A stretch of DNA of 64,000 bases, from assembly GCA_963759775.1 (NCBI GenBank), contig CAVXAH010000001.1, positions 208,682 through 272,681 on the forward strand. Direction: 5' to 3'. The notes beneath the pieces were generated by a model. It saw only the letters and a list, made by a program, of their open reading frames with translations, had not been told where the DNA came from and ran no database searches. Positions 2,312-41,119 of the stretch are shown piece by piece. Position 1 is the first letter of the stretch. Each line of letters starts with the position of its first letter. This DNA comes from an uncultured bacterium. Lineage in GTDB: Bacteria > Patescibacteriota > Minisyncoccia > Phycocordibacterales > Phycocordibacteraceae. The translations under genes and the position numbers were made by a program.

Positions 2312-3274
2312 TTACTCCACCTCCTCCGATGGTCCCACACCGCCTGCGGCCGCGGCGGCCTGAAGAGCCAAAACAATGTCATCAATTCCCCCTTCCATTA
2401 CCCGCGGAAGGTTGTGCCAAGACTCCTTAATGCGGTGGTCAGTCACGCGGTCTTGGAGGAAGTTGTAGGTGCGTATTTTTTCGGAGCGATCACCCGTGCC
2501 GATTTGTCCCTTTCGCTCTGCCGCGTGTTTTTTTGCCTCCTCTTCTTCATGCAATTGTTCAATCTTTGCGGAGAGGATTTGCATCGCTTTCTCGCGGTTT
2601 GCCTGCTGGCTCCGTTCTGCCTGCGACCGCACCTCAAGCCCGGTCGGCTTGTGGACAAGCCGTACGGCCGTCTCAACCTTGTTTACGTTTTGCCCACCGG
2701 CGCCACCGGCGCGTGAAAACTCCATGAGAATATCGGCGGGGTTGATATCTACTTTTGATTTTGCACGGATCGGCAACACCGCGATAGACGCTGTGGAGGT
2801 GTGAATGCGTCCCGACTTCTCGGTCGCAGGAACTCTTTGCACGCGATGTACTCCCATCTCATAACGAAGCGCGTCGTACGCAGGCGTCCCTCCAATTTCT
2901 ATAGTGAGGTCGTCAATCAACCGCACTTTCCATCTCTTTGATTCTGCAAATTTCTGATACATCTCTTTCAGGTCGCGTGCAAAAATAGTTGCTTCATCTC
3001 CCCCCGCGCCAGCTCGAAACTCTAGGACAATTGCCATGGGCTTTGACTCCTCTTCTTTCTCTTTCGTGAGAATACGGTCCATTTCAGCAAGAATCTCTTT
3101 CTGACGCGCGCGGATGCGCGTCTCGTCTTCTTTCGCCATGTGCACCAAATCTGCATCAACTCCCGCGGCGAGCGTCGCGTTTTTCGCTTCCTCTTCAAGA
3201 CGTTCAAATTCCTCCGCAAGATATGCGACGGCGTAATTCTTTTTGAGTTCAGGAGAATATTCCATGGTGCTCAT
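2312..3274 (-). CDS. prfA: peptide chain release factor 1
   Basis: GGQ motif ([20 protein letters not shown]) and RF1-type PAT tripeptide ([17 protein letters not shown]). Confidence 0.9.
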
Positions 3275-12679: not shown

Positions 12680-13183
12680 TCATGGATTTTTGCCGTATCG
12701 GCGGGCGTATTCCGGTCCCCAGATGTGGGGCATGTCCTTGGCGAGCATCGCCATGGACGCGCGCTCAAACTCCTCCACGTCCTTTTGTCGCTTGGTCTGC
12801 TCCGGTTTCCGCTGTAGTCCTTGGTGTTCGGACGACTTCACCGCCTTGATAAACGACGAGATGAGCTTTGAGCATTCTTCTGCTCTCATCTTTAAATTTT
12901 TAAACATTTCAATATTTAAATATCCTATGTCGTGTGCCGCATAGAGCTGTGCTCTCACTTCCCCCGCAGAGGCTTTAGCGATGTAGAGATAGTTCACAAA
13001 CCCTTGTCGCGTCCCACTTTCAAACCCTTCTGCAATGTTGCTCATCACCGAAATACTCGCGCGCTGAATTTGGTCGGTGAAGCCACGGTCGCGGCACGTG
13101 CGAAGGACGTCGTACACATCGCGCGTGAGCGCACGAGCGGCTTGCCAGCATTTCAAATCCTCAAATCGCTGTACCGTTGCCAT
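12680..13183 (-). CDS. four-helix-bundle protein (23S rRNA intervening-sequence protein family)
   Basis: FEDLKCWQAARAL, SNIAEGFESGT and ASAGEVRAQL motifs, with a C-terminal extension of about 55 aa. Confidence 0.75.
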   Translation of the reverse strand: MATVQRFEDLKCWQAARALTRDVYDVLRTCRDRGFTDQIQRASISVMSNIAEGFESGTRQGFVNYLYIAKASAGEVRAQLYAAHDIGYLNIEMFKNLKMRAEECSKLISSFIKAVKSSEHQGLQRKPEQTKRQKDVEEFERASMAMLAKDMPHIWGPEYARRYGKNP

Positions 13184-13215: not shown

Positions 13216-16200
13216 TTAATTTGGGGTTTCCTCGGGCGCAGGCTCTGGTGCGGGTTCTGGAGCAGGTGCGGGTTCGGGAGTTGGTTCTGGAGCCGGGATT
13301 GACTCAACTGGAGGAGGCTCGCTTGGTGCATCACCGCCTTCTGCCGGAGTTCCTGAAGTTACAGTTACCAAACGCGAGACGCCTCCGGTATTTCCTGCCG
13401 CATCACTTACTTGGTATGTGATGGTGTACATGCCCTCGGTTGTAGCATCAACCGTGCCAGACACTATTATATGTGTCGTGAGGTCGCCGTCGATGTCGTC
13501 CGTTGCGGTAGTGCCCGGGTCGGTGAAGGTGTCGCCTACCGAAACCTCAATCGCCGCATCTCCGATGAGTGTAAGAACTGGTGATGTGGTGTCGCCAGAG
13601 ACTGGTGTTGATGTTGCAGAGCTTGGTGGCGAAGTAACGGTTGGAGGTTCGGAACCACCGCTTGAACTTGGAGGAGGGGTTTGCGAAACAGTAGGAGTGG
13701 ATGGTACGCCAGTGTCGGAAGTCTGTACCAAGAAATAGTCAAAGGAGACATCTTCGTCTTGGTCTCTTGAAAGCACCACGCGGAAGCTTCCGACTTGTTT
13801 GTCGCTTACGTACCATGAGCCGCTCACCTGCGAGTTGAAGGTGATGAATATCTTCGTTGAGGGCCTCACAAGAGAGTTGGTGATTTCAACCACTGTGTTG
13901 CCGGAGAGTATCGTTGCGGTGCCTGCAGAGCTTGTGCCGTCTGCGTCTTTTCCTGCGACAAGTTCGCGGAAGACAAGCTGGTTGAAGCGCGCAATACCCT
14001 TTTCAATAAATATGCCGAAGTTTTCAAGAGCCGAAGCAAGTGTGGAGGTGGAGAGGATGTTTGTAGAAGTTGCCATGCCCACTTCTCCACTTTCAAGTTT
14101 CGCGAGGCGATCCTCAAGTGAGTTCATGCGCGCTTCGTGCATATTTACTTTTGCAGCAAGTGCTTGTACGCCTGCGAGCGTAAAGGTGGTGAGTTTGTAG
14201 AGATCAACGCCTCTTCTATCCGCAGAAAGTATTTCTGGCGCCGTCTGCGCGGCGTCCTCCGCGATAAGTCCGAGGCGAAGCGGACTTCCGGCGCTCTCCA
14301 CGGTGTAGTGGTAGGTTGCAATCTTCAACTGCCCAAGCTTCGCAAGGGCAGCCGCCCCCTCCTCTGCGCCAAAGTATGTGACGTCAGATTTGGCAGAGCG
14401 GGTTGAAGTATTTACAAAACCGATCGCCGCCACCTCACCATTTACTTCCAGTGCGTGGTTTGGGGTGTTGGTGCCGATACCAACGTTGCCTGTTGCTCCA
14501 TTAACCGTAAACTGCCCTGGTGCAAATGCGTATTCCGGGCTGACAAATACTTCAACCGTTCCGGACGAGGAAATGTTCGCGAGCGCAAAACCGACAATTC
14601 TTCCAGACTCCGTCGCCTTCTTTCCAACACCCGGTGTTGAAGAAAGAGTAATGGGATCGCCGATTGAGATTGGTCCGCCTTCCATATTTACTTTCGTGGG
14701 CACGCGACCGGCAAGAGCAACAGGGACATCATTTGCGCCGTGTGTTCCGATTGCGACACCATTTTGACCAAGTGTCGCACCAGAGCCTTCCGCCAAAGAG
14801 AGGCCTGGGGAGGTTGAAACAATGCCTATCATTCCTCCACTTGAGGTTGCCTTGCGCACTCCTTTGACTGTCCCGCTATCAAGCATCACCAATTCTCCAG
14901 GCTCAAGAGAACCCACTGCTGTGTAGTACTCGGCGAGGTCCGTACATTGGCTTGACGTACAACCCGAAGCAAAGACGTTGCGCCAGCGAAGAAGCGATGT
15001 GCTTTGTCCGAGGTCTTGCGCGGCGTCACCGCCAGGATAGACGTGGCCGGAGGTGGTCATTTTAACTGTTGCGGAAATTGCGCCAAGAACAACACTTCCT
15101 GCATCGGAGTAAACAAGCAAGTCCGCATCATTTCCTCCGTGACCAAAATAACCCGATCGGCTTCCATTCCTGTAGAAAGCCATGTAGGGATAGGCTGTCG
15201 TTGTATTGGTAACACGCATCACTTCCGCAAAGCTTCCGGTTCTGGATACATCAAGTAGTGCGCCTGGCGTCGTGGTCCCAATGCCGACGTTGCCGGAAGA
15301 GGTTATGGTTAAGTCCCGCGTGTTTCCGCCTCCTCTAAATTCAAGGTTCCCGGTTATTGCACGTACAATTGCTCCCGCGCTGTCCCACGTGAGTTGCCCA
15401 TATTGGTTGGTGAGAGATCCCCACCCAACCGAGTTCAGGTTGTTATCACGAACGTCTAGTTTTGTCGTCGTTGAAAGTTGTCCAATACCAATACGTCCAT
15501 CATTCCCAACCACAAAGTGTGTTGCGGTTGAGCTTCCAACGACAAATGCGGGGCCGGTAATGCCGTTTGGGTTCACTGACAACTGTCCCCACGGCGAGGT
15601 GGTCCCGATTCCCACTCTTCCGCTTGTCTGTTGGACAATGAAGTGTGAGGTGCCTACGGTAAGTCCACCCGTTGAGATAGTGGAGGTCGCGGTGGTGGAG
15701 GTGGCAACAAAGTTTTGTCCCACCACCAGTCCCGCAACCGAGAGTTTGGCGTAGGGCGAGGTGGTGCCGATACCGACGTTGCCTGAGGCGTCAACTCTCA
15801 TCCTTTCTGAACTGTTTGTTATGAAGTATATGGGTTGAGCGGCAATGGTATAAAGCTGAACAGGTCCTGTGTTTGCAACCAAATTCATAATACTACTGCC
15901 TGAAGAGCCATCGCCGATATAGCCAATTTCCGTATTATCAGATGTCCTAAATGATATGTACGGATCGGCAGTTACTGCTGAAGCGCTGTCAAGATCCTGA
16001 ATACGCAACATTTCTGATCCCGTGGAAGCGATGTGAAGTTTCGCGCCTGGACTCGTCGTCCCGATACCGACGTTGCCATTTTGAAGCACCGTGAGACCAC
16101 TTGCGCCGGCGGCTGAAAGACCGCCGGCGAATGTGGAGGTTGCGGTGGTGCTCGTTGCATGGAAATACTCTGCAACGACCGGCCCGACGACTGACAGTTT

Positions 16201-16608
16201 TGCGTATGGCGACGTCGTCCCGATCCCGACGTTGCCGGTAGAGCCGATAAAGATACTTGAGGTGGCTTGTGCTACGCCCATATCATTGCCGACGAGGAAG
16301 TTGCCTTTGGCGAGGGCGAGATTGTTGACTCCAATCGTTGAGGTGGAAACAAGCATTTTGTTCGCGTCGGTGGCGATGAGAGAGGACGCGGAAATGCCGG
16401 TGAGCCAGGTTGAGCCCGAGTTCGTGAAGCCGGTGGTGGAGGCGTTCTGGAATGAGGACGCGACGGTGGTGGAGGTTGCGTGGAAATACTCCGCAACGAC
16501 AGGTCCGACGACGGAAAGTTTGGCGTATGGCGAAGTTGTGCCGATACCGACGTTGCCTGTGCTGTTCTGAATAAGAAGTTTGGTGGTGTTGTTTGTAACC
16601 AAGTTCAA
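13216..16608 (-). CDS. C-terminal 1130 codons of a giant fibre-like surface protein
   Basis: It carries repeated GNVGIGTTSPYAKLSV modules. A tailspike-type intramolecular-chaperone (S74-like) segment lies at approx 14090-14420. An Ig-like module and a PAPEPTPEPAPAPEP tail follow. Confidence 0.75.
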   Translation of the reverse strand: MNLVTNNTTKLLIQNSTGNVGIGTTSPYAKLSVVGPVVAEYFHATSTTVASSFQNASTTGFTNSGSTWLTGISASSLIATDANKMLVSTSTIGVNNLALAKGNFLVGNDMGVAQATSSIFIGSTGNVGIGTTSPYAKLSVVGPVVAEYFHATSTTATSTFAGGLSAAGASGLTVLQNGNVGIGTTSPGAKLHIASTGSEMLRIQDLDSASAVTADPYISFRTSDNTEIGYIGDGSSGSSIMNLVANTGPVQLYTIAAQPIYFITNSSERMRVDASGNVGIGTTSPYAKLSVAGLVVGQNFVATSTTATSTISTGGLTVGTSHFIVQQTSGRVGIGTTSPWGQLSVNPNGITGPAFVVGSSTATHFVVGNDGRIGIGQLSTTTKLDVRDNNLNSVGWGSLTNQYGQLTWDSAGAIVRAITGNLEFRGGGNTRDLTITSSGNVGIGTTTPGALLDVSRTGSFAEVMRVTNTTTAYPYMAFYRNGSRSGYFGHGGNDADLLVYSDAGSVVLGAISATVKMTTSGHVYPGGDAAQDLGQSTSLLRWRNVFASGCTSSQCTDLAEYYTAVGSLEPGELVMLDSGTVKGVRKATSSGGMIGIVSTSPGLSLAEGSGATLGQNGVAIGTHGANDVPVALAGRVPTKVNMEGGPISIGDPITLSSTPGVGKKATESGRIVGFALANISSSGTVEVFVSPEYAFAPGQFTVNGATGNVGIGTNTPNHALEVNGEVAAIGFVNTSTRSAKSDVTYFGAEEGAAALAKLGQLKIATYHYTVESAGSPLRLGLIAEDAAQTAPEILSADRRGVDLYKLTTFTLAGVQALAAKVNMHEARMNSLEDRLAKLESGEVGMATSTNILSTSTLASALENFGIFIEKGIARFNQLVFRELVAGKDADGTSSAGTATILSGNTVVEITNSLVRPSTKIFITFNSQVSGSWYVSDKQVGSFRVVLSRDQDEDVSFDYFLVQTSDTGVPSTPTVSQTPPPSSSGGSEPPTVTSPPSSATSTPVSGDTTSPVLTLIGDAAIEVSVGDTFTDPGTTATDDIDGDLTTHIIVSGTVDATTEGMYTITYQVSDAAGNTGGVSRLVTVTSGTPAEGGDAPSEPPPVESIPAPEPTPEPAPAPEPAPEPAPEETPN

Positions 16609-19600
16609 ATCGTACCCCCCGAGCGTTCGAAGAACCCATTACCGTTGCCACTACTGTCGGTACGCGAAATCAGGCTGACATTAGTACCGCGCAGTAACGC
16701 AAAGTATCGGAGTCAGTGCCAGCGATATTAAACTTCGCCCCTGGAGTCACTGTTCCGATGCCAACTCGACCATCATTTCTCACAAACAGAATGCTGGTTC
16801 CGTTGCTGTCCGTTACGTTGAGCGAGGAGTTAGCAGATGTCGCATCCGTACCTTGAATACTCAATTTTGACAGCGGACTCGTCGTACCGATGCCGACGTT
16901 GTTGCCGTTAAGATTTAGAATTGTTGAACTGGTCGGATTTCCCAACGAAACAATGTTGGAAGAGTTCATGGTGAGCACACTTCTATCAACTCCGATATTA
17001 TCGACGATCTTAAAAGCTTGCGCATTATCGATAACGACGTTCCCTCCTGATACATGCAATTTCCCAAGCGGCGAAGTTGTCCCAATGCCAACGTTGCCGC
17101 CAAATTCTTGGAGTACGATAGGCGTTTTTACAGAATTGCCGACATTGAAGGATTCGATACCGAGATAGTTATTGCTTCCATTGTAATCTCTATAGATATA
17201 TCCGACAGTGCCTCCTGACACACCGAACCCGAGTAGTTGTTCGTATGTTGTTGATGTCTCAGATTGCGCACCGGTGATCTGCAATTTTGCCGAAGGCGTC
17301 GTCGTCCCAATGCCGACATTGCCCGTGCCATCAATCACCATTCTCGTCGCAGGAGTCGCTCCCGTGACAAAACAATGTCACGGCTTGCTCCACTTGGGCG
17401 CGATTGAAGAACGAGATTTCCTGCCGTAAGAAAGGGGTATACGCCACCACCATTTGATGTTGAATACAAAACAGGGTGCGTATCCGTAGTATCGAATGCG
17501 GTCGCATTGTTTCCGAAATGGAGTAGAGTCGCGACATTTATGTTACCCGTTACGTCCAAGTTAAATGCAGGGGATGTATTTCCAACCCCCACATTCCCAT
17601 TTTGAAGCACCGTGAGGCCCGTAGCGCCGGCGGCTGAAAGACCGCCGGCGAATGTGGAGGTTGCTGTTGTTGAGGTCGCATGGAAATACTCCGCCACCAC
17701 AGGCCCGACAACAGAAAGTTTGGCGTACGGCGAGGTGGTGCCGATGCCGACGTTGCCGTTGGCTTTTATTGAAAAAAGGTTCGCACCCGATGCGCTTGAA
17801 TCAACTCGAAGAGCATACGTTGCACTGTCGGAAGGTCCCACCCGGATGAGTAGTCCATTTCTATTGCTCCCGGCGAAGAACCTGTTTGCACAATGCCTGC
17901 TACATATCCTCCGCCTAGCCCCGACCAAGTAAGTCCACCCGCCAATACGCCAGTGCCATCGAGATCCGCTAAAGCAGTTGCTGTGTTTGAAAGAAGAGTG
18001 ATCGGACTCGTCGTCCCAATCCCCACATTCCCATTTTGAAGCACGGTGAGGCCCGAGAGCTGGCGGCTGAAAGACCGCCGGCGAATGTTGAGGTTGCGGT
18101 CGTGGAAGTGGCGTGGAAATACTCCGCTACAACAGGCCCCACGACCGAAAGTTTTGCGTATGGCGATGATGTCCCAATCCCGACGTTGCCGCCCTCAAGC
18201 ACGGTGAAAAGGGTTGCAGGAGGCGGTGTTGATGACGTTGAAAAGTGAGCCGGTGCCACCAGTCCCAGTGCGTGAGGCGCGAAGACGGCGAGGTGGTACC
18301 AAAGCCAGAGTTCCCGTTTGCAACCACAAATGCGGTTGGGTTTCTGGAGGTGGTGGATGCCGAGCCCGCGACGGTGAGCCCGCCGTTTATGAGTGCATCA
18401 CTCCCCACGCCAAGACCGCCGCGGATGTTGAGCCCGCTGCCAAAGACCGCGAGCGCGTCCACTTGGAGAGAGTCGGTTTGGATGTTGCCCGCATAGAGGG
18501 TGGATGCTTCAAGACCGCCAATGTCAATAACGGCGAGAGAGTCGCGGTTGAAATTAGCCACATACGCATACTTGCCGGAGACAAGAAGATGCCGCGAGCA
18601 CCTTGAAGTGAGGTGCCGGGGGTGGGGCCTTGGGTTTCGGCGATGAAGGTGGGACTTGCGGGGTTGGAGATATCAATAACGGCGAGAGAGGCGCGGGTGA
18701 TGTTGGCCACATACGCATACTTGCCGGAGACGAAGATGCCACTGGCAGCGTCAAGCGAGGTGCCGGGGGTGGGGCCTTGGGTTTCGGCGATGAAGAGGTG
18801 GGACTTGCGGGGTTTGAGATGTCAATGACGGCGAGAGAGTCGCGGTTGGAATTAACCACATACGCATACTTGCCGGAGACGAAGATGCCGATGGGACCAT
18901 CCAGCGAGGTGCCGGGGGTGGGGCCTTGGGTTTCGGCGATGAAGGTGGGACTTGCGGGGTTGCTGATGTCAATGACGGCGAGAGAGTCGCGGTTGGAATT
19001 AACCACATACGCATACTTGCCGGAGACGAAGATGTTGCGAGCGCCATCAAGTGAGGTGCCGGGGGTGGGGCCTTGGGTTTCGGCGATGAAGGTGGGAGTT
19101 GCGGGGTTGGATATGTCGATGACGGCGAGAGAGGCGCGGGTGATGTTGGCCACATACGCAGTACTTGCCGGAGACGAAGATGCCACTGGCGCCGTCAAGC
19201 GAGGTGCCGGGGGTGGGGCCTTGGGTTTCGGCGATGAAGGTGGGACTTGCGGGGTTTGATGTCAATGACGGCGAGAGAGTCGCGGTTTTGATTTGCCACA
19301 TACGCATACTTGCCGGAGACGAAGATGTTGCGAGCGCCATCAAGTGAGGTGCCGGGGGTGGGGCCTTGGGTTTCGGCGATGAAGGTGGGACTTGCGGGGT
19401 TTGAGATGTCAATAACGGCGAGAGAGTCGCGGTTGGAATTAACCACATACGCATACTTGCCGGAGACGAAGATGCCGATGGGACCATCCAGCGAGGTGCC
19501 GGGGGTGGGGCCTTGGGTTTCACTGATGAATTCCGGGTCGATGGCGCGGCCTGCGAAGTATGAGCTGCCGCGCCCGGAGATGGAGGCATAGGGGCCGCCG

Positions 19601-20432
19601 AGAAGTGCGGTCGAGCTTGCGACCGCAAAAAGAGGCGACGTGGATGCTTGTCCCGCAGAACCCGCCACCGAAAGTTTTGCGTATGGCGATGATGTCCCAA
19701 TCCCGACGTTGCCAGATTTGTCTATTCTCACTCTTTCACTGGATGCGGTGCCAAGGTCGTGCGTGTGAAAAGCCAAGTAGCCCTCGCCAGTGCCTGAAGG
19801 CCCACCAAACTCAATTCCAGAAAAACCCTCGTCAGTAGCAAGGTTATTTTCTGCTCCATATTTGGTTATACCGATGTATCGAGACGTTGTGATCAAATCA
19901 TTCCAATTACCCAAAGAAATGCCCGTTACCGTTCCAGCGGAACCATATATGCTCAGCTTGCTTCCTGGACTCGTGGTACTGATGCCCACGCGCTGATTGA
20001 GTGTATCAATGGAGAGAATGGAGTTGCTTGTGGCGTCGGTGAAATTGAACGTGTTTACCAGATTTGTCTGCGGCGTGAAGAAAAGGCCTGGGCTTGCGCC
20101 ATTTATACCGAGCGTCGTAGTGCCCGTGGAATTTACCGACGTTGTGATTTCGTTTGAGCTGTCATACTGAATACGAAACTGTGGCGCGACCGTAGAGGTG
20201 ATGGTCTGCGCACCAGAATTCACGATGCCGCCGGCAAGGAGATTTCCCGAATTATCTACGCGGAAAAGTGTCGTGCCAGCATTTGATTTGTAATTAATGA
20301 AGTCGCCCGAAGGAGCGGTGTCGGTAATGCGATACGCGCTGATGAAAGGCGTGCCGTTTGCGTTTTGAAGTATTTCAAGAGAAGCGCCGGCTGTGGTGGT
20401 GCCGATGCCAAGTCTTCCGGAAGTAAGTCACC
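16609..20432 (-). pseudogene. central part of the same giant gene, coding sense spread over at least 8 abutting frames
   Basis: Track ORFs 16670..17341, 17335..17928, 17766..18044, 17969..18259, 18127..18561, 18554..19198 and 19195..20223 carry the same repeat themes. Their frames can be spliced into continuous sense. Confidence 0.6.
18540..19560 (-). repeat. seven tandem ~147-bp units encoding LVIVD-type repeats
   Basis: The anchor CCACATACGC recurs at 18558, 18707, 18856, 19003, 19150, 19296 and 19443. Each unit encodes KYAYVVNSNRDSLAVIDISNPASPTFIAETQGPTPGTSLDG. Confidence 0.8.
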
Positions 20433-22669
20433 CGCAGGCGCTCGGCGCCTGCGGTAGAGAGGGCGAGTGTATTTGCAGCTGGCGACCACCAGCCAGTATC
20501 AACATCGTTTGAAAACGTAAACGCCGGAGCGCCTGCGGCGCCGAGTGTGGAAGCGGCGAAGTAAGTAGCCGTAGAGGTAGCGCTTGCGGTGATTCCGGCA
20601 ACTGAAAGATTGCCGGAGAGAAGCGCATCTCCCTGAACCGACAAACGAGACCCGGGAGAGGTGGTGCCGATGCCGACGTTGTTCGTAGTGAAGTCATATA
20701 CCAATCCGGAAGTCTCAATGGCGAGTCCTCCCGCAAAGGTGGATGTGGCTGCGGCGTCGGTTGCCACAAAGAACGCCGCGGTATTTGCGCCCGTCGTGGA
20801 AAGACTTCCTGAAACCGAGAGTGTGCCGAAAGTTCCCGTATCCGCCTCGACCGTCCCGGCATTTAGAACATTGCCACCATCAAGCGTCCCGTCTATCTGG
20901 ACGTAATTGCTCAAGTTATTTTCCAAGCTGTCGTACACGCCGTTGATAACTTTATCGAGATAGTCTTTGGAGACACCGGAAACAAGGGTTTGGTAGGTTG
21001 GGTTTGAGTAGTACGTGGGATACGAGATGTTGGTGACGCGAGTCGTAGTCCCAGTTCCTCCCGCAAGCGAGCCGGAAGGTACTCCGGGAAGCACGATAGT
21101 TGGTGGTGGAGCAAACAACATTGCAAGCGCATTCGTCACACCAGAGAACCATCCGCGGATAGTTTCGTAAGTGGTAAGTGCTACGCGCTCGCCCGCCTCT
21201 GCAAACCCGAGCGCCGCAGAGAGATCTACCGAAATTTCCGGTATGCCCACTGCCGCGACTGTGAGACCTTTGTTCCCTTTTAGAAGATCGCTTTTGAGCG
21301 TCTCGAGCGCAACCGCGCTTTTGCCAAGGGCTCCTAGCGTCGCGATTTCAATTTTTTTTGGAAGCTCCGACACGCCGTGCACAGCTTCGTATGCAAGCGC
21401 ACCCGAAGAAGTAATCGCTTGCTCGTATCCACCAAGAAGGCTCTCGAGTCCCCCCACAAATGCGAGTGCCGACGTGTACTCTGCATTAAAAACCGCCTCC
21501 GCGATGCGCGGCCCGCCGTCCGCAAGCGCCTTTGTAAAACCAAGATACGCACCAGCAACGTCATGTGGTGCGCTGTCCGCAAAGACTGCAAGATGCTCCC
21601 CCACGTTCGTTACAAGCGAGAAGGCTACGCGCGCGCTTTCCGGTGCCGCTTCCGCAGTGCCGTACGCAAGCGAAGTACCAGCGCGTATAGACCCGTGTGA
21701 AGCGGCGATGAGCGCATTTCCAACCGCAAGATTAAACTTCACCGCCGCGACGGGCGCGGCGCGTATCGCGTCCCGCGTCCTCTCACCAAGCGAGAGTGCC
21801 TTTCCTCCCACGGTGTTTACAAACGAAAGATATTTCTCAAACGCACCGTGGCTCAAGCTATACCCCGCCTGCCCCACACTTGTGTACACATTCCACGGAA
21901 GCGACGCCACACTCGCAACGCTTTTTTCCCACGAGATTTTTGAAACGATGTTCGCAACCTCCCCAATCGTCGGGATCGCAACCACTCGTGTTTGATTTTC
22001 GGAATTTCGCAACCTCCAACCTCCAACCTCCAACCTCGGAGTTTCTATCGGCATCGCAAAAAATGTTGAGTCCGGGTACGCCAAGTGCGGTGACGCCATT
22101 TCATTCGTCATGTCCTCAACGCGCATCTTTGTGCGCGCTTGTGTTTCCAAAATTTCTGCGTTTATCAAAGCAAGCCGATCACTTACCGCGTCTTGTTTCT
22201 CCGACGCTACGCCCGCGAACGCGACTGATGCGTCAAACACTGAAGCTCCTGCATTTTCCAAAAAGTCAGTGAACACTGCGGCACGTGCGAACGCACCTGC
22301 ACCACCTACGACAAAAAGTGCAGTGGCAATAGCGACTCCTTCGCGCGCGAGCCACGTTGTTGGAAATACTCTAGAAGCTTTCGGAAGCGGAGCACTGAGC
22401 ACGCGCGCCACTTTTTGTATCGGAGAGTGGACAGCGCGGTATTCCTTCTCGCGCACCTGTTGGAGTGTGCGAGCGCGCACCTGGTTGCGGTCGCCCTGCG
22501 CTTGCACAAAGCCCTCAAGAGAATTCCTATCAATAAACCACGTACGGCCAATCTGCTTGCCTATCAATTTCCCCGAGCGACACAGACGCGCGAGGTAGTC
22601 AGAGTTATATCCAGAAAATTTGGATGCTTCTCTATTTGAAATTAGATTTGTATTTAAGAAAGGATCCAT
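20375..22669 (-). CDS. N-terminal 764 codons of the giant surface protein (HTH + TM + extracellular region)
   Basis: Excisionase-type HTH ISNREASKFSGYNSDYLARLCRSGKLIGKQIGRTWFI, then TM helix GVAIATALFVVGGAGAFARAAVF. The frame is lost at approx 20425. Confidence 0.75.
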   Translation of the reverse strand: MDPFLNTNLISNREASKFSGYNSDYLARLCRSGKLIGKQIGRTWFIDRNSLEGFVQAQGDRNQVRARTLQQVREKEYRAVHSPIQKVARVLSAPLPKASRVFPTTWLAREGVAIATALFVVGGAGAFARAAVFTDFLENAGASVFDASVAFAGVASEKQDAVSDRLALINAEILETQARTKMRVEDMTNEMASPHLAYPDSTFFAMPIETPRLEVGGWRLRNSENQTRVVAIPTIGEVANIVSKISWEKSVASVASLPWNVYTSVGQAGYSLSHGAFEKYLSFVNTVGGKALSLGERTRDAIRAAPVAAVKFNLAVGNALIAASHGSIRAGTSLAYGTAEAAPESARVAFSLVTNVGEHLAVFADSAPHDVAGAYLGFTKALADGGPRIAEAVFNAEYTSALAFVGGLESLLGGYEQAITSSGALAYEAVHGVSELPKKIEIATLGALGKSAVALETLKSDLLKGNKGLTVAAVGIPEISVDLSAALGFAEAGERVALTTYETIRGWFSGVTNALAMLFAPPPTIVLPGVPSGSLAGGTGTTTRVTNISYPTYYSNPTYQTLVSGVSKDYLDKVINGVYDSLENNLSNYVQIDGTLDGGNVLNAGTVEADTGTFGTLSVSGSLSTTGANTAAFFVATDAAATSTFAGGLAIETSGLVYDFTTNNVGIGTTSPGSRLSVQGDALLSGNLSVAGITASATSTATYFAASTLGAAGAPAFTFSNDVDTGWWSPAANTLALSTAGAERLRVTYFRKTWHRHHHSRRFS

Positions 22670-23373: not shown

Positions 23374-24138
23374 TTACTTGTTATTTATGATAGTGATTCC
23401 CGCTGCTCTCGATATTAAAGTGTTAGACGAGATCGTTGAATCTAAGAGCCCTAAGCCTAATACACCCAGCAAAAGCGATAGAACGGCCAAAACAAGAGCC
23501 ACGAGCCGAAGGGTTCGGAAACCTACCCCAAGAGACACTTCCCCCCTTACAGCTCGCTCCGGCGACTTCTCTTCCCCCTCCACTGCAAGCTCCTCAAGCT
23601 TCACCTTCTTCATAACACCAAATTTCGGAGCTTCTTGGGTCTTATAAATAGTATGTATCGGTACCTGCACCGCTCCGGTCTCTACAACAGGTTCTACATT
23701 TCTTTGCGCATCTGCTTCAGTAGCGGATATTTGTGGCCGTGAGAACCAATCTTTCCATGCGCCGTGCATGACTTCGAGAGTGTTTTGCGTCTGACTCTCA
23801 TCTATCTGCGGATCCTTCTTCTCGGTTTTTGGCTGTTCCGAAAGCTTGTTGAGCGATGGAAAATACTCATTGCTTTCGCTCTTGTATCGTGGAGCTTCCC
23901 ATGTCGGGTGGAGAGGTTCTTTTGATACTTCTGGAGCAACTTCCATCTTTGGTTCTTCCGCTCCAAATCGGTGATCCTGAAGTGCTGACTCTAGTACATA
24001 CCAAGTCCTGCCGATGAGCCTGGCAGGGACCCTTCCTTCTCTGCAGAGCTGGCCGATGTAGTCTTTTGCGTAGCCGGTTATCTCCGCCGCTTGCTTAGAC
24101 GAGATATATTTCTTGTGATCAATAATGACCTCTTGCAT
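23374..24138 (-). CDS. HTH (excisionase-type) protein with C-terminal TM helix
   Basis: ISSKQAAEITGYAKDYIGQLCREGRVPARLIGRTWYV at the N-terminus and LVALVLAVLSLLLGVLGLGLL near the C-terminus. Confidence 0.6.
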   Translation of the reverse strand: MQEVIIDHKKYISSKQAAEITGYAKDYIGQLCREGRVPARLIGRTWYVLESALQDHRFGAEEPKMEVAPEVSKEPLHPTWEAPRYKSESNEYFPSLNKLSEQPKTEKKDPQIDESQTQNTLEVMHGAWKDWFSRPQISATEADAQRNVEPVVETGAVQVPIHTIYKTQEAPKFGVMKKVKLEELAVEGEEKSPERAVRGEVSLGVGFRTLRLVALVLAVLSLLLGVLGLGLLDSTISSNTLISRAAGITIINNK

Positions 24139-27388: not shown

Positions 27389-29921
27389 TTAGGCTTGAGG
27401 ATTTCCGATCACTATCCATCCATCCTCTTCCACGAGCCGTTCTGCTTTTTTATATTTGAGAGTCTGTGTTTCCTCACCCTTCTTGATGATAACGACATCG
27501 TTCCTGCCGTAGGCCGAGGTTTTCACGAGCGGAGCTTGTGCACTTCCTTCTTCACTCCCCTGCGCTACAAGCCGTGCGCGAGTCTTTTCTTCTTCAGTGC
27601 GAATGCGGGCGTAGTCGGCGGGAGCAATATTTGGCACCGTGCGACACACCGCTTCTTTGATTGCGGTTTCAAGCGCGCGGTAGCGCGAAAGTCCTTCGCG
27701 TCGGTACTCGATCAGAGGATCTCTTTGTCCGTACGCACGAAGTGACACTGAGCGCCGAAGGTAATCCATAGTATCCAAATGCTCCAACCAGAAAGTGTCG
27801 GTTGCCTGGAGCAGAAGCCGGCGCAAGAGCGCAATAAGTGATTCTGCACCGTATTCTTTTTTCTTCGCTTCAAGTGCTGTCTCGCCGCGTCATCTCCCTC
27901 GACGAGGTCACGAATGATGCTTCTCGACTTCTTGCGCAGAGCCCATGAGGGCGGCGCGACGGCGTGCGTATATAGCAAGACGCTGGGTGTTCATCACATC
28001 GTCGTAGGCAAGCACTTGTTTGCGTGAGTCAAAGTTGAACCCTTCTATGCGCGTTTGCGCCGTCTCAAGGGACTTCGTAATCATGGAGCTCTCTATGGCT
28101 TCGTCTTCGGGAATGCCAAACGTTACCCATCACTTTCTTCAAGGTCTCCGACGCAAAAACGCGCATGAGTTTGTCTTCAAGCGACACATAGAACCTCGTT
28201 TCGCCCGGGTCGCCCTGACGGCCGGAACGACCGCGCAGCTGGTTATCAATACGACGCGCGTCGTGACGCTCGGTACCAATAATCGCAAGACCACCCGCGG
28301 CGAGAACCTCATCGCGCTCTGCTGGGTCGGTCGGCATGCCACCGAGCTTAATGTCAACACCTCGACCTGCGAGGTTTGTTGCTACCGTCACACGACCTTT
28401 GTGTCCCGCCTGCGCGATGATTTCTCCTTCGCGCTCGTGGTTTTTTGCGTTCAAGACTTCGTGCGGCACGCCGGCATCCCGCAGATACGAGCTCACCACC
28501 TCGTTGTCTTCAATAGAAACGGTACCCACCAAGACCGGCTGACCTTTCTCGTGCCGCGCCTTCACGTCGCGCGCAACTGCTTTGTATTTGCCGGCGGCTG
28601 TTTGGAAAATAAGGTCGTCAAAGTCCTTACGTGCGATTGGCTTGTGGGTTGGCACGACTACCACCTCAAGTCCGTACACCGTATAAAACTCTTCCTCCGA
28701 GCTAAGCGCGGTGCCTGTCATGCCCGCAAGTTTTGTGTACATGCGGAAATAATTTTGGAAGGTAACGGTTGCGTAGGTACGCGTCTCTGCTTTCACCGCG
28801 ACTCCCTCTCTCGCTTCAATAGCCTGATGCAGGCCGTCTGACCATCTTCGCCCTGGCTGCATGCGTCCGGTGAATTCATCCACAATCACAATCTCGCCGT
28901 CCCGCACGACGTACTCTTTGTCTTTACGGAAAAGTGCTTTCGCGCGCACCGCTGTCTCTAGGTGATGCGCGTACTTCATGCCGCCCTCGGTATAGATATT
29001 CTCCATGCCGAGCGCCTCTTCTGCCTTTTTGATGCCTGCATCCGTGAGTTGTATCGCCTTTTGCTTCTCATCCACACTGTAGTCTTCCCCTTCCTTGAAG
29101 CTCTCGGTAATCAATGCGAAACGTTCGTAGAATTTTTCGGAATCGCCCGCGGGGCCAGAAATGATGAGCGGGGTCCGCGCTTCGTCTATTAAAATGGAGT
29201 CGATTTCGTCGACTATGGCAAACGCATGCTCGCGCTGGTTTATCTGCGATGCGTCGTACGCGGTGTTGTCTCGCAAGTAGTCAAAACCGAGTTCGTTGTT
29301 GGTTGCGTAGGTAATGTCTGCTCCATAAGCTTCTTTTTTTGTCGCCGGTCGCAGATAGTCGTAAAATACGCGGAACGAGCCCTGCTCGTCACGCTCTGCA
29401 TCCTCGGCTTTCCGCACGTGTGATGCGTCGTATACATAGGAACCCGAAGAGGTGATGACGCCAACAGAAAGTCCGAGTGCCGCGTACACCTGTCCCATCC
29501 ACGCGCCGTCGCGGCGCGCGAGGTAGTCGTTTACCGTCACAATATGAACGCCCTTCCCCACAACCGCGGCGGCTGTTGCTGGAAGTGTAGCAACGAGCGT
29601 CTTTCCCTCTCCGGTTCGCATCTCGGCTATTTTGCCGCGAAGCAGAGCGAGCCCTCCCATGAGCTGTACGTCGTAGTGGCGTTCATTTAAAGTGCGGCGG
29701 GCGGCTTCACGCACGAGCGCAAAGACAAGTGGTACATCAGCGTCATGAACACCCTTCGAGGAACGCGTTCGCAGATCAGCTATTTTTTCCTTAAGCTCGT
29801 CATCGGTGAGTGCTTCCGCGAACCCCGCGAGAGCGTTTACGGAAGACACGACCTCGGCCGCGGACTTCAAAAAAGCCGCGGATTGGTTCTTAGAAAACAG
29901 CTTAGAGAGGAAACTCGCCAT
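27389..29921 (-). CDS. secA: preprotein translocase ATPase SecA (reading frame broken at least three times between approx 27880 and 28135)
   Basis: [14 protein letters not shown] and [14 protein letters not shown] motifs in ORF 28065..29921. Homologous sequence ([24 protein letters not shown].., [10 protein letters not shown]..) continues in other frames. It ends in ORF 27389..27826 ([13 protein letters not shown]). Confidence 0.85.
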
Positions 29922-33824: not shown

Positions 33825-34571
33825 ATGAAACTGACCCTCTCCATAAAAGAAGCTCTGAAAAAGAGGTTGCACAAAGAGGGCGCATTATATGCTCTCTTGG
33901 CAAAGTTGAGGCGGCGACCGCTTCCAGAGTTCTTCCATTCAGGTTTCCATGGAGACCACTATCTCATTGCGATTGCTGACGCACTTCTTAATCGTGTTGA
34001 TCAATTTATCGAGACCGGGTCAAGCACTGGCTCTACCATCGTGTTTGTCGCAGAGAAATTTCCTTCCCTTCCATTGTGGGGTTGCGAGCCGGACAAAAAT
34101 GCATTCTCATTTGCTCGAACGAAGACAGGAAAATATCCAAATATTCATTTAATTAAAAAGGTTTCCCCAGACTTCTTATATGACATCGCGAAAGAGAACC
34201 GTGGCCTGACCGCACAAGATACTCTTTTCTGGTTGGATGCGCATGCGAATGGCTTTTCGTGGCCATTGAAGAAAGAGATAGCGTTTATTACCTCTCATTT
34301 TGAGAAAGCCTATATTCTGATTGACGATTTTCTCGTTCCTGGAAGGCCGTGGTTTGGTTATGACGCTTATGACGGACAGGTGTGCTCCATGGATTTCATA
34401 CGTGACTCGCTCGACAAAAAGCAATCCTACACCGTGTATTATCCAACGTATCGTGATCAGACTTCTGCATTTTGCAAATTGCGTGGGTGGGTACTCATAG
34501 AATTCGGCCATGGGGAGCCTCTTCCTGCATTGCTTTTAGATAAAGTTGAAAAATCCCCTCATGTCAATTAG
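33825..34571 (+). CDS. hypothetical protein, possible SAM-dependent methyltransferase fold
   Basis: The FIETGSSTGSTIVFVAEKF glycine-rich loop resembles class I methyltransferases. Weak call. Confidence 0.35.
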   Translation: MKLTLSIKEALKKRLHKEGALYALLAKLRRRPLPEFFHSGFHGDHYLIAIADALLNRVDQFIETGSSTGSTIVFVAEKFPSLPLWGCEPDKNAFSFARTKTGKYPNIHLIKKVSPDFLYDIAKENRGLTAQDTLFWLDAHANGFSWPLKKEIAFITSHFEKAYILIDDFLVPGRPWFGYDAYDGQVCSMDFIRDSLDKKQSYTVYYPTYRDQTSAFCKLRGWVLIEFGHGEPLPALLLDKVEKSPHVN

Positions 34572-35874
34572 AGAACACATTTATTCTTTGCTTCGGAAAT
34601 CAGAGCAGTACCTGAAAACCGACATGGTGTACCTGACTCACGGAGGTTTTTGGCTTACTCTTTGGCAGACAAGCACCGCGCTTTCTTCTCTGGCTATTGC
34701 TGTTGCATTTGCCTATCTGCTTCCCAAAGAGGTTTTTGGAAATTATAAATATATTCTTTCCCTAGCGGCTATAGCTGGATCACTCTCTCTCACGGGTCTC
34801 GGTGGAGCCGTGACACAGGCCGTTGCTCAGGGGTTTGAACAAACGCTCAGTGCCGCTTTCCGCGCCAATTTTCGTTGGGGTATGTTCGTCACTGCTACTT
34901 CATGGGTAATGGCAGCGTATTATTTTATTAATGAGAACAATACAATTGCTACTGCCCTCTTTTTTATAGGAATCATTCTCCCTTTTCTTAATAATTTCCT
35001 TTTATACGGAGCCTTTCTTAGTGGAAAAAAATACTTTAAAGAAAATGCTCTCAAAGGAATTGTTCTTGGTATTGTCCCGGCAGTAGCCGTTATTAGTACT
35101 TTCTTTATCACGAACAACGCGGCCTTCCTCGCTATTATATTTCTCTTTTCAAGTGCGGTGGTTGCAGGTTTATTTTATTTTCTTACCGTACGTACTCATC
35201 GGCCTGTGGGTGGAGTAAGCCTAAAAGCGCTTTCCTATGGAAAACATGCAAGTGTTATGGGAGTAGTGGGAGTTGTTGCTGTTCAAATAGAAAGCGTACT
35301 TATTTTTCATTATCTTGGAGCTGCGGAACTCGCTGCGTACGCTCTTGCCCTCGCTTTTCCACAACATATCTGGAATTTGTTTCGAAATGTTTCAACTCTG
35401 GCTCTTCCAAAATTCTCTGAGAAAAGCTTCGTGGGTGTGAAGTTTCCTCTTACACGTAAAATATTTACCCTCTCACTCGCCGCCGGGATAATTACGGCCT
35501 TATATGTCTTTCTAGCGCCGCTTCTTTTTGAGATTCTTTTCCCCCAATATACGGAGTCAGTTCTCCTTTCACAAGTCCTTTCGATATCCCTCCTTGGCAT
35601 AGCAAGCGTCATACCTCTTACCGCACTACAGGCATCGCTCAAGAAAAAAAGAATGTATGCGTATACATTCGTGAGTAACGTATTCCATATTGTCGTTGCT
35701 TTGATATCAATTCCTATTTGGGGATTGTGGGGTGCAGTCGCAGCATATATTGCAGCGCGCTTGTTTTCTCTCGCACTCTCAATCTTTCTTACCAGGACTA
35801 TCGAAACGGGAGACAAATTTGACGATTCTTCTAAAAATACGGAAGATGAGATACCGAAACCAATGATGGGATGA
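34546..35874 (+). CDS. polysaccharide flippase (Wzx/MOP-like, multi-TM)
   Basis: 442 aa with about 12 TM segments, in a polysaccharide cluster context. Confidence 0.6.
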   Translation: MKNPLMSIREHIYSLLRKSEQYLKTDMVYLTHGGFWLTLWQTSTALSSLAIAVAFAYLLPKEVFGNYKYILSLAAIAGSLSLTGLGGAVTQAVAQGFEQTLSAAFRANFRWGMFVTATSWVMAAYYFINENNTIATALFFIGIILPFLNNFLLYGAFLSGKKYFKENALKGIVLGIVPAVAVISTFFITNNAAFLAIIFLFSSAVVAGLFYFLTVRTHRPVGGVSLKALSYGKHASVMGVVGVVAVQIESVLIFHYLGAAELAAYALALAFPQHIWNLFRNVSTLALPKFSEKSFVGVKFPLTRKIFTLSLAAGIITALYVFLAPLLFEILFPQYTESVLLSQVLSISLLGIASVIPLTALQASLKKKRMYAYTFVSNVFHIVVALISIPIWGLWGAVAAYIAARLFSLALSIFLTRTIETGDKFDDSSKNTEDEIPKPMMG

Positions 35875-36681
35875 GTATGGGAAAATCCTAAGAAATTTAG
35901 GAAGTGGTTGTATAGCGTGTCTTAACGGAATATCGTGCCACAGAAGACGATCACATCCGTCTATGACGAGAGTTCCGTCATACAGTTGAAATACTCGTGT
36001 TTGATATTTCTTCCCGTCAAAGAGCGAGTGGATTTGGTTATCTTTCAAGCCAAAAACCGAAAAAAATTCTTCCCTTACAAAAAATCCATTGAGTCGTGTC
36101 GCGGCGATAAGCTCATATCCCTTTCTCTTGCCAAGTTCCGTCAACGCGCGGAGAGATGATCCTTGGCTGATTTTCATATCTTTTTCTTGAATAAATATAA
36201 TATCGTCAGGAATGGAGGGGTTAAACTCAATCACCACGACGTGTGGTTTATAGGTGCTTATTGAATTCCAAATATGGTAATCATTCCCATCGACATCTAC
36301 CGACAAGAGATCAAAATCTTTAGGAATACGGGTTTTCGCTAATATTTCGTCCAGTGTATTTTCTCCCTCGAAAGAAACCATCGCATGCACGCTTGTAACC
36401 TTTGGATTATTCGTATATGTCTTTTGTAAAGACGCGTGTCTATTTTTGTCGCCTTCGATGAGAACACTGGACCATCCTTTGTTAAGAATGAGATTCCTTG
36501 TATTGCTAAAATGTATACCGTCCCAGGCACCAATTTCCACACACCATTTCTCTTCTTTGGTAGGTAACATTTGAAAGATTTTATCAATGATTCCATCTTC
36601 CCCTGTTTGAGAAAACGTGTTTTCTCCAAATGTTTGCAGCTGGAAATGTGTGGTATCAGTCTCTGTTTTTCCGTTAGTCAT
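35779..36681 (-). CDS. methyltransferase-like protein (FkbM-like)
   Basis: CVEIGAWDGIHFSNTRNL..VLIEGD motif. Start taken at ATG 36679-36681, which forms an ATGA overlap with the upstream stop. Confidence 0.45.
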   Translation of the reverse strand: MTNGKTETDTTHFQLQTFGENTFSQTGEDGIIDKIFQMLPTKEEKWCVEIGAWDGIHFSNTRNLILNKGWSSVLIEGDKNRHASLQKTYTNNPKVTSVHAMVSFEGENTLDEILAKTRIPKDFDLLSVDVDGNDYHIWNSISTYKPHVVVIEFNPSIPDDIIFIQEKDMKISQGSSLRALTELGKRKGYELIAATRLNGFFVREEFFSVFGLKDNQIHSLFDGKKYQTRVFQLYDGTLVIDGCDRLLWHDIPLRHAIQPLPKFLRIFPYSSHHWFRYLIFRIFRRIVKFVSRFDSPGKKD

Positions 36682-37721
36682 AGCGATGTAAAATATGAAG
36701 ATAATTTTTCCGCAAACTGATCCGCGGAGCACTGTTCGACCGCAAATGCCCGAGCATTCTCTCCGAGTTTACGCCTTTCGTCTTTATTTCGCAAAAGTCT
36801 TTCTATAGTCGCATGCAGAGCTCTCTCATTATTCCGCTCAACGAGAGCCGCACTTCTCCCGTCTTCTACATATGACTCCATTGTGTTGGTTCTTGTAACC
36901 ACAATGGCCTTCCCCATCGCCATCGCTTCAACGAGTGTCGAACAGCCCATCGCGTTGTTTCTTTCATGGTCCGGTATATTGAGGGGCAACACAACAAGCT
37001 TAGCGCGCGCATACTGCTCCACAAGCTCCTGAGGAGTGAAGTTGTGAACGGTCACATTCTTCGGGAGTGGTTCCAGATGCTTTAACTGATTTGGCAATGC
37101 CGTAATTTTCACTTCGATATCCAAATCTTTCACCGCTTCAAACAGCGTCTTGAAGTCCCGCCCAGGATCTCTTCCTATGCTTAAAATGAAATTCTCTTCT
37201 GGAACCTTCTGCGGTTTGAAAAATTCAATATCAGTACCTAAGTGTAAAAATAATGTTTTTTTATGGGGGAAAAGCGCCCTCAGCGCATTTTCCTCACTCT
37301 CGGAAATCGTAACAACCCCGTCGGTGCGTGAGGCTAAATAATACAGAAGTTTTTGTTTAAATGTCTTTCGTTCTCCTATTAACCCGGTTACATTGAAGTC
37401 TAGTAGTACCCATTTTGGTTTCTTTATATGGAGAACCGCCTTTATAAAGAGCGAGCCGAACGCGGTTGAAGTAAATACGGCGTCATGTTTCAGAAATAAA
37501 GGGAATAGGGGTAGATGAACAGCGTGTATGTTGAGAATGTGTCGTCTTAAGAAAACTGCAAATGAGCGGGGTATATACTGCTCAAGCTCAAGATAGCGCG
37601 CGTCAATTCCATATTTTCGCATGCGAAACATACCAAAAAAGTGACCGTCATGGCCCTCCCTGGCTTTGATGGCACTGAGTTCATCACGTTTAATTCGATT
37701 GAATAGAAAGAGGACTTTCAT
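36678..37721 (-). CDS. glycosyltransferase, GT4/group 1
   Basis: C-terminal GT1 pattern (NAMGCSTLVEAMAMGKAIVVT). Start taken at MKVLFLF (ATG 37719-37721). Confidence 0.75.
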   Translation of the reverse strand: MKVLFLFNRIKRDELSAIKAREGHDGHFFGMFRMRKYGIDARYLELEQYIPRSFAVFLRRHILNIHAVHLPLFPLFLKHDAVFTSTAFGSLFIKAVLHIKKPKWVLLDFNVTGLIGERKTFKQKLLYYLASRTDGVVTISESEENALRALFPHKKTLFLHLGTDIEFFKPQKVPEENFILSIGRDPGRDFKTLFEAVKDLDIEVKITALPNQLKHLEPLPKNVTVHNFTPQELVEQYARAKLVVLPLNIPDHERNNAMGCSTLVEAMAMGKAIVVTRTNTMESYVEDGRSAALVERNNERALHATIERLLRNKDERRKLGENARAFAVEQCSADQFAEKLSSYFTSL

Positions 37722-41117: not shown

Positions 41118-41119
41118 AT

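Follow-up and report, generated by a model that had tools for sequence, protein, structure and literature searches.

A frame-broken locus in a Paceibacterota-type bacterium probably encodes one giant membrane-anchored fiber protein with internal autochaperone-like modules

Results

We analyzed the minus-strand interval 13216-22669 of a 64,000-nucleotide stretch of contig CAVXAH010000001.1, hereafter the window. This interval is probably a single chromosomal gene for a giant fiber protein of ~3,100 residues, carried by a bacterium of the Paceibacterota/Parcubacteria type within the candidate phyla radiation (CPR). A preliminary description, made from the letters and an open reading frame (ORF) list alone, had proposed one ~9.45-kb gene with a product of about that length, and it was borne out both by a continuous reading of 3,145 residues and by relatives that carry the gene as a single ORF. 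From the N-terminus, the protein consists of a helix-turn-helix (HTH) domain of the HTH_17 family, a transmembrane helix, an Ala-rich region, GNVGIGTT-type fiber, seven LVIVD units, further fiber, a G2-type module, a short stalk, an S74/intramolecular chaperone (ICA) module with a long helix, a β-sandwich, a Pro/Ser/Thr linker, an immunoglobulin (Ig)-like domain, and a Pro-rich tail. Coordinates for all of these features are collected in Table 1.

No single ORF covers the minus strand from 22669 to 13216. Instead, the reading is spread over successive stop-free segments whose frames alternate and whose ends abut or overlap, in the arrangement that the preliminary description had reported: two long segments at the ends, and between them one of 410 codons, a short series, and one of 235 codons. 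In a three-frame print-out, amino-acid sense passes directly from one frame to another, and the switch often falls inside a repeat unit. Two splices had been placed beforehand at ~20425 and ~16620, and both were correct; AERLRVT continues into SGRLGIGTTTAG at 20426/20421, and FFERSGG continues into YDLNLVTNNTTKL at 16614, inside a G6 run. Between the ATG at 22669 and the stop, at least 8 frame changes are needed by stop-avoidance alone. When sense and intact paralogous repeat units guide the reading, 12 frame changes yield the 3,145 residues with no in-frame stop. Alternative genetic codes were considered and rejected, with TGA, TAG, or TAA read as sense still leaving 5-7 frame changes. The sequence themes previously said to be shared among the ORFs were found as an array at 18521-19521 with 6.8 tandem copies of a 147-bp unit (Tandem Repeats Finder), together with 171-nt and 104-nt modules that occur in 4-5 copies at 64-84% identity.

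Relatives were then compared with the two ends of the gene. The sole relative of the 764-residue N-terminal piece in the protein collection was P0002 (31% identity), which sits behind the same gatB and small-HTH genes and is ended at 758 aa by its contig end. For the C-terminal piece of 1,140 residues, relatives in Patescibacteria number in the thousands. Both the N-terminal and the C-terminal modules of the window protein are held by the complete proteins P0020 (1,716 aa) and P0028 (1,839 aa), with 31-34% identity across the N-terminal module of HTH, transmembrane helix, and Ala-rich region. No match of ≥2,000 aa was listed from the protein database, so full-length giants were read from DNA loci. 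The N-terminal alignment matched 71 loci in species-representative genomes, mostly metagenome-assembled genomes (MAGs) of Paceibacterota, Kaiserbacteria, and Minisyncoccia; the genomes scanned were GTDB representatives, and the window's own genome is not among them. Reading from the matched start gave complete, uninterrupted ORFs at L012 (2,791 aa) and L053 (2,175 aa), and ORFs still open at the end of the DNA read at L013 (>4,061 aa), L038 (>4,103 aa), L048 (>4,201 aa), and L051 (>4,235 aa). In L012, HTH_17 lies at residues 10-58 and Peptidase_S74 at 2292-2349 (33.5 bits), followed by two C-terminal Ig-like domains, which is the same HTH_17, S74, Ig-like order as in the window. The synteny of GatB, a small HTH protein, and the giant gene is also kept in L001 and many other loci. 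In the window, as in relatives, the gene for the small HTH protein is immediately upstream of the giant gene; its product has 254 aa, with an N-terminal HTH_17 domain, an acidic linker, and a C-terminal transmembrane helix, and is a paralogue of the N-terminus of the giant protein. A homologue search that used the corrected core was overwhelmed by matches to repeat words and missed even the window's own fragments, and is thus uninformative on proteins that span the junctions.

Because relatives carry both end modules in single intact ORFs, we read the interval as one gene, and on these sequence comparisons a single ~9.45-kb gene is the only reading consistent with the relatives. The gene caller did make separate products (764, 342, and 223 aa among others), and the ORF listing offers a start codon for each piece, as would be expected of a small family of independent neighboring fiber genes. 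We consider such a family highly improbable, since sense crosses every junction and continues in mid-repeat unit, neighboring pieces abut or overlap in different frames, an anchor or signal occurs only in the first piece, and the relatives have one ORF. Separate genes with their own starts, which the preliminary description had named as the outcome that would overturn it, are contradicted by the same observations. A scan of the locus for sigma-70 promoters and terminators stayed at chance level, which likewise gives the independent genes no support.

We next consider the origin of the frame breaks. All 12 are confined to 3.8 kb that form the repeat-richest core of the gene, a clustering with a probability of ~2e-5 under uniform placement (our own arithmetic), and the other 5.6 kb contains no indel. 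Four breaks are 1-2-nt differences from intact sister LVIVD units, and two others fall in T4 and G6 runs. Breaks are also present elsewhere in the window. By tblastn with proteins of the relative L001, secA (27407-29909, minus strand) has an uncompensated frameshift at ~28122 (KKVMG / FGIPEDE) and a compensating pair at ~27880-27915, and WzyC, MurB, Obg, and GatB are intact. The murD gene (51804-53121, minus strand) is split at ~52100-52124, with its N-terminal and middle domains in one frame and its C-terminal domain (IMGGADKG...SPAFASFGMF) in the next. A codon-usage Viterbi pass with Pfam checks found no further breaks in ~25 other window genes. As the essential genes secA (three frameshifts) and murD (one) are broken in the same 64 kb, the 12 breaks are very probably indels of assembly or polishing and not biology.

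Several observations weigh against a technical cause. The classic error signature is not seen at some of the twelve frame changes, which are indels of 2-4 nt that lie away from homopolymers. The broken pieces are also the sole versions on record: the gene fragments are recorded in one 594,792-bp NCBI/ENA contig only, and a 4.9-kb Logan contig of the same organism (run ERR12037361), which holds the identical neighboring gene P0124, ends 617 residues into the giant gene and so does not reach the first break. JGI metagenomes were scanned twice by exact pattern, at the J12 junction and the secA site, without any alternative allele being found, and exact-protein look-ups for P0001 and P0123 as an independent copy of the locus returned no record. 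Giant repeat-rich adhesin genes are, moreover, prone to slippage. These points would fit a genuine pseudogene, that is, a fiber gene decaying in its lineage through 12 real frameshift mutations. We regard this as unlikely given that secA and murD are frameshifted too, that the 5.6 kb outside the core is free of indels, and that the repeat units retain clean coding sense. The 1,265 core codons also hold no nonsense codon, where 2.5% of core point changes would create one, though this argument is weak, as it depends on an assumed substitution-to-indel ratio. If the breaks are technical, as we favor, indel errors can shred giant repeat-rich genes in long single-contig MAGs, so that they are annotated as many small ORFs or pseudogenes.

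The N-terminal and fiber regions agreed well with the preliminary description. The excisionase-type HTH was recovered: HTH_17 was matched by 20 of 20 orthologue N-termini at E ≤ 0.01 (best 4e-9), though the window's own Pfam score is 18.2-25.9 bits against a cut-off of 27, and the N-terminal family profile matched the HTH protein AM32 in the PDB (3.5e-6). The one transmembrane helix corresponds to the top Kyte-Doolittle window of the protein (1.72), the only strongly hydrophobic stretch, and it is conserved in the alignment. Its N-terminal flank carries a charge of +4 and its C-terminal flank -3, and the N-terminus is therefore predicted to lie inside the cell. The Ala-rich region that follows had no Pfam match and resembles no known family. 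The long fiber-like repeats proposed earlier correspond to two GNVGIGTT-type segments, with 16 strict copies of GNVGIGTTSP-type motifs in the corrected protein, and the fiber core is homologous to "tail fiber domain-containing" proteins, including the Bdellovibrio protein P0196. Between the two segments, LVIVD (PF08309) matched seven stretches above its gathering score (216.6 bits, E=1.6e-65), and a seven-bladed Lactonase propeller matched at 3e-8. Seven units is the number previously proposed, but the count is provisional and may be inexact because four indels lie inside the array.

Toward the C-terminus, an S74-like chaperone segment had been placed at ~14090-14420, and it lies inside a module for which both profile and fold matches point to ICA domains. 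Against Peptidase_S74 (PF13884, cut-off 22), the 1,140-residue fragment reached 22.7 bits and the corrected protein 21.2 bits. The family profile A3 matched T5 pb1 (1.1e-5) and the ICA of MyRF (myelin regulatory factor; 7.6e-5) in the PDB. The alignment places Ser2750 and Lys2755 of the window protein on MyRF residues 587 and 592 and on SGIEYK of T5 pb1. This Ser-x4-Lys dyad is invariant in 18 of 18 homologues. For a 147-residue AlphaFold2 (AF2) monomer model of the ICA (pLDDT 76; helix at model residues 97-133), the top Foldseek match was the MyRF ICA (E=5.6e-4, TM-score 0.57-0.62), followed by the T5 pb1 and endoNF chaperones, and the top structures were all ICA or IMC (7dc3, 4uw8, 3gud, and 3gw6). 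Judged from this model, the ICA fold is present, with its β "donut," long helix, and β-helical stalk. With the window's own Pfam scores near or below the cut-offs, family profiles and fold matches favor both the HTH and the S74-like assignments, whose failure the preliminary description had also named as evidence against itself.

By profile comparison, there is a second autochaperone-like module, of the G2 type (phi29 gp12/Peptidase_G2), that the preliminary description missed; it lies ~180 residues upstream of the S74/ICA module. It begins with a D2572-x-A-E2575 motif preceded by C2565 and C2570, and the D, A, and E are invariant in 15 of 15 sequences. Against the PDB, the family profile A4 matched the Dpo31 chaperone domain (1.1e-4) and the phi29 preneck appendage (4e-4 and 8e-4). 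In the profile alignment, D2572 falls on the residue with which the cleaved gp12 fragment (3gqh) starts, and also on "SDYAEYF" of the Dpo31 chaperone domain, and the D-x-x-E of the window module aligns with the catalytic D692...E695 at the cleavage site of gp12. The Peptidase_G2 family itself (PF11962) scored 12.8 bits, below its cut-off of 25, with the homologue P0027 reaching 24.2 bits. The module also matches virion proteins of jumbo phages at 35% identity (tblastn).

Unlike S74 modules as defined, the S74/ICA module is not C-terminal, with ~290 conserved residues after the domain. The preliminary description had recognized this internal position, and it proves to be family-wide: in all 34 motif-bearing homologues with a C-terminus present, 282-543 residues separate the Ser from the C-terminus. 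A canonical S74 motif (SDxRxK) lies 129-139 residues upstream of the "STRxxK" ICA in 11 of 35 homologues (P0003-P0113), a G2-type D-x-A-E motif lies 167-282 residues upstream in 11 others, and none of the 35 has the two together. This suggests that the upstream modules are interchangeable, and with a second module upstream of the ICA, the family would carry two tandem autochaperone-like modules followed by conserved tip-like domains.

The domains beyond the chaperone had been outlined as an Ig-like module and tail of about 330 residues; they comprise the ~290 residues of a β-sandwich, an Ig-like domain (PF16403), and a Pro-rich tail. The β-sandwich has a weak Pfam match to K1-lyase_C (E=0.006), and its fold matches in BFVD were phage tail fibers and phage proteins annotated with a K1-lyase C-terminal domain. 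PF16403 scored 76.7 bits against a cut-off of 27, with sequence and fold matches in the PDB to 2kpn, BT2262, and chitinase 60 Ig-like domains (Foldseek: 2kpn, 5fq3, and 4hmc). An AF2 monomer of the last 700 residues was poor overall (pLDDT 57), and its usable parts are the β-sandwich and Ig-like domains, both with pLDDT >90.

Whether these modules cleave is a separate matter. The Ser/Lys dyad predicts self-cleavage, and we lean toward cleavage over a purely structural role. In MyRF, S587 and K592 are indispensable for cleavage, and S911 and K916 of endoNF are the same dyad (PMC8326128). The D-x-A-E motif likewise would predict self-cleavage at the G2-type module. Several points count against the overall account: the window's HTH_17 score lies below the Pfam cut-off, its S74 score straddles the cut-off, the G2 assignment uses ~55 aligned residues, and simple disposal of the fragment sits poorly with a conserved tip-like domain beyond the cleavage site. 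Alternatively, the modules may no longer cleave and act as trimerization registers only, with the β-sandwich and Ig-like end as a permanent distal tip. This is the less probable account but one with appreciable weight. It fits the internal position of the module across the family and the resemblance of the β-sandwich to C-terminal domains of phage tail-fiber and K1-lyase proteins, and the Aureispira grappling-hook protein (5,898 aa) also contains an internal region similar to the G2-like module. The second motif position, moreover, is Thr and not the usual Asp (STRSAK versus SDxxxK), though T5 pb1 also lacks the Asp (SGIEYK). Set against a non-cleaving role, both residues of the Ser-x4-Lys dyad are invariant and align to the MyRF residues whose mutation abolishes cleavage, and we argue from this invariant pair that cleavage still occurs.

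Finally, phage fibers typically carry modules of the S74, G2-like, and K1-lyase_C-like kinds, and NCBI names relatives "tail fiber domain-containing protein," so that the gene could be taken for a prophage or phage-derived tail-fiber gene and not for that of a cellular surface protein. Gene context led us to reject this reading, which we hold to be very remote. The flanks are housekeeping genes (gatB, obg, secA, and those for GAPDH and transketolase) with no phage genes, and the synteny is kept across many Paceibacterota genomes. The protein has an N-terminal HTH and transmembrane anchor, and the matches in phage records are confined to the G2-like and Ig-like pieces; tblastn found no phage record that combines the S74-like and post-S74 modules.

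Table 1. Coordinates of the giant fiber gene, its frame changes, and its upstream partner gene in the window
Feature	Position	Strand	Details
Whole gene (probable)	13216-22669	-	ATG 22669, stop 13216-13218; frame-corrected product 3,145 aa
Stop-free segment	20378-22684	-	769 codons
Stop-free segment	19198-20427	-	410 codons
Eight shorter stop-free pieces	between segments 19198-20427 and 16673-17377	-	
Stop-free segment	16673-17377	-	235 codons
Stop-free segment	13219-16638	-	1,140 codons
HTH_17 (PF12728; excisionase/MerR-type)	22496-22639	-	aa 11-58; predicted cytoplasmic
Single transmembrane helix	22274-22342	-	~aa 110-132 (GVAIATALFVVGGAGAFARAAVF); predicted N-in
Ala-rich extracytoplasmic region (predicted)	20990-22273	-	aa 133-560; aligned with P0002, P0020, P0028
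Fiber segment 1, GNVGIGTT-type repeats	19519-20989	-	aa 561-1049; contains J1
LVIVD array, seven 49-aa units (147 bp), putative β-propeller	18508-19518	-	aa 1050-1385; contains J2-J5
Fiber segment 2, many GNVGIGTTSP(YAKLSVVG...) modules	14965-18507	-	aa 1386-2563; contains J6-J12
G2-type (phi29 gp12/Peptidase_G2) autochaperone-like module	14509-14940	-	aa 2572-2715
Short stalk repeat and S74/ICA intramolecular chaperone with coiled-coil helix	14068-14490	-	aa 2722-2862
Candidate catalytic Ser2750	14404-14406	-	in FVNTSTRSAK
Candidate catalytic Lys2755	14389-14391	-	in FVNTSTRSAK
β-Sandwich	13720-14046	-	aa ~2870-2978
Pro/Ser/Thr linker	13588-13719	-	
Bacterial surface Ig-like domain (PF16403, ex-DUF5011)	13360-13575	-	aa 3027-3098; E=1.4e-21
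Pro-rich tail	13219-13359	-	
Zone of all 12 frame changes	16614-20426	-	within 3.8 kb of the 9.45-kb gene
J1	~20424 (20421-20426)	-	net offset +4
J2	~19259	-	net offset -2
J3	~19160	-	net offset +1
J4	~18796	-	net offset +2
J5	~18584	-	net offset +2
J6	~18268	-	net offset +4 or +1
J7	~18218	-	net offset +1
J8	~18059	-	net offset +5 or -1
J9	~17868	-	net offset -1
J10	~17371	-	net offset -1, T4 run
J11	~16698	-	net offset +2
J12	~16614	-	net offset -1, G6 run
Upstream partner gene, 254-aa tail-anchored HTH_17 protein	23374-24138	-	HTH_17 28.4 bits (above cut-off); transmembrane helix aa 212-232; syntenic

Other features of the window were also recorded. A gene for a PF05635 (23S rRNA-intervening-sequence) protein at 12680-13183 (minus strand) lies directly downstream of the giant gene. 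A low-GC island at 34000-40000 (0.41-0.43 versus ~0.52 elsewhere) adjoins three GT4 glycosyltransferase genes (39870-43779) and may be an acquired surface-polysaccharide cluster. Between glycosyltransferase and epimerase genes, 43629-43922 (minus strand) holds a 98-codon stop-free stretch that is GIY-YIG-like (VYVIKSLTSDYWYTGVTNDLRKRFSQHQ). At 44755-47785 (minus strand), a ComEA-like protein with HHH and PKD domains adjoins a TrwB/VirD4-type coupling ATPase, and these are candidate DNA-uptake or transfer genes. In the release-factor gene at 2312-3274 (minus strand), the PCRF match begins at profile position 28, which could reflect a prfB-type upstream frame or a mis-called start. Beside tRNA-Ile and 16S rRNA, 53742-53801 (minus strand) gave a weak partial Rfam tRNA match (36.5 bits, model positions 9-63) and no ARAGORN call.

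Discussion

A most likely mechanism can be proposed. The HTH would stay in the cytoplasm, with the transmembrane helix acting as a signal-anchor and the remaining ~3,000 residues exported. The C-terminal autochaperone modules would emerge last and bring three neighboring chains into register, so that a trimeric β-helical fiber, nucleated at its C-terminal end, could zip back toward the membrane. For domains of this kind, such a role is documented in phage fibers and in the MAT (mosaic adhesive trimer) adhesins of Bdellovibrio. Such a fiber would carry a β-propeller together with Ig-like and β-sandwich modules, which are plausible ligand-binding parts, and may bind another cell or surface. Cleavage at Ser2750 would detach a trimeric C-terminal fragment of residues 2750-3145 (396 residues), whereas cleavage at the D-x-A-E motif would instead detach a fragment of 574 residues. 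The conserved tip-like domains beyond the cleavage site argue that this fragment would be functional whether detached or retained.

We infer a role as a host-attachment organelle, as the preliminary description had suggested for an episymbiont. A fuller proposal is improbable in its entirety: a cell-contact organelle specific to the CPR, in which one precursor of 2,000 to >4,000 residues with two self-cleaving chaperone modules (G2 or canonical S74, then the STRxxK ICA) would yield a membrane-anchored trimeric fiber and a separate trimeric fragment of ~400-570 residues with Ig-like and β-sandwich tips, while the cytoplasmic HTHs of the fiber and of its tail-anchored paralogue would couple the state of the fiber to DNA or gene expression. 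Most Paceibacterota/Parcubacteria have never been grown in culture, and the partner organism is known for only a minority. A giant fiber that is conserved and syntenic, and is built of the same parts as the cell-recognition proteins of phages and Bdellovibrio, is a concrete candidate for their partner-contact structure, and its variable modules (the LVIVD propeller and Ig-like tips) could indicate ligand specificity.

The protein can be likened to a phage tail fiber or a MAT adhesin, yet by sequence it is without the defining features of each: there is no MAT N-terminal domain, the chaperone is not terminal, and the topology is not that of MyRF. Among phage fibers, endoNF CIMCD (3GW6), T5 pb1 (4UW8/8HQZ), and phi29 gp12 (3GQH) have profile and fold similarity to both chaperone types of the window, and their catalytic Ser/Lys and D-x-x-E align with window residues. 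In these phage proteins, however, there is one chaperone per protein, as the last domain, and it is discarded after cleavage, whereas in the window two chaperone types lie internally in tandem and are followed by conserved domains. Giant bacterial fibers are also known from Aureispira, where the grappling-hook protein GhpA (PDB 9FLP, 5,898 aa) captures other cells in a predatory role. Within GhpA, the G2-like module is weakly matched (E=0.0036) over only ~45 residues, and no shared end modules were found.

The MAT fibers of Bdellovibrio bacteriovorus are likewise bacterial surface proteins that resemble phage tail fibers, in an organism that attaches to cells. They are surface-displayed trimeric adhesins whose S74 domains, with an SDxxxK motif, self-cleave (PMC10769870), in Bd3182, a member of their S74 subfamily, at the Ser of this motif (Caulton et al. 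2024, PMC10769870). They share with the window protein a GNVGIGTT-type repeat motif and the S74 Ser-x4-Lys motif, and short GNVGIGTT-motif profile matches were obtained to the MAT structures 8ol4, 8ojn, and 8ond (E=0.009 to 1.2). MAT proteins are defined by a signal peptide and then a conserved β-rich N-terminal domain of ~130 aa (PMC10769870). In place of these, the N-terminus of the window protein has HTH_17, a transmembrane helix, and the Ala-rich region. The MAT fiber itself is an intertwined trimeric β-prism or β-helix with recurring capping motifs, toward which the window protein offers only the short motif matches and the homology of its core to P0196. The MAT fibers are ~1,000 aa long and end in a terminal S74 domain, whereas the window protein, with its HTH and transmembrane anchor, is three times that length and has an internal propeller, two chaperone-like modules, and ~290 residues past the S74. 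Neither the tandem internal autochaperone modules nor the HTH-transmembrane anchor has been described for phage or MAT fibers.

The MyRF ICA (PDB 7DC3) gave the best fold match (TM-score ~0.6) and was also matched by the profile over its full length, GxVGIxT stalk included, and MyRF, like the window protein, combines a DNA-binding domain, a transmembrane helix, and an internal ICA domain. Both the DNA-binding domain and the ICA of MyRF precede its transmembrane helix and share one side of the membrane, so cleavage frees a transcription factor. In the window protein, the order is HTH (11-58), transmembrane helix (110-132), and ICA (~2722-2862), so the transmembrane helix separates the HTH from the ICA. 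With the membrane between them, cleavage of the ICA cannot release the HTH, and the resemblance to MyRF is one of shared parts and not of mechanism.

The closest counterparts are the other giant proteins of Paceibacterota, a family for which we found no published description in the literature. The family is widespread in Paceibacterota, where automatic annotation names its members "tail fiber domain-containing" or "DUF5011 domain-containing." These giants (for example L012, P0020, and P0028) are like the window protein in the N-terminal module (HTH_17, transmembrane helix, and Ala-rich region), in the C-terminal module (STRxxK ICA, β-sandwich, Pro/Ser/Thr linker, and Ig-like domain), and in the synteny with a small HTH paralogue. 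The window protein differs from them in that its gene is frameshifted in this assembly, in that its first chaperone module is of the G2 type and not a canonical S74, and in that it adds the seven-unit LVIVD array, which is otherwise present in few relatives, such as P0007 and P0064.

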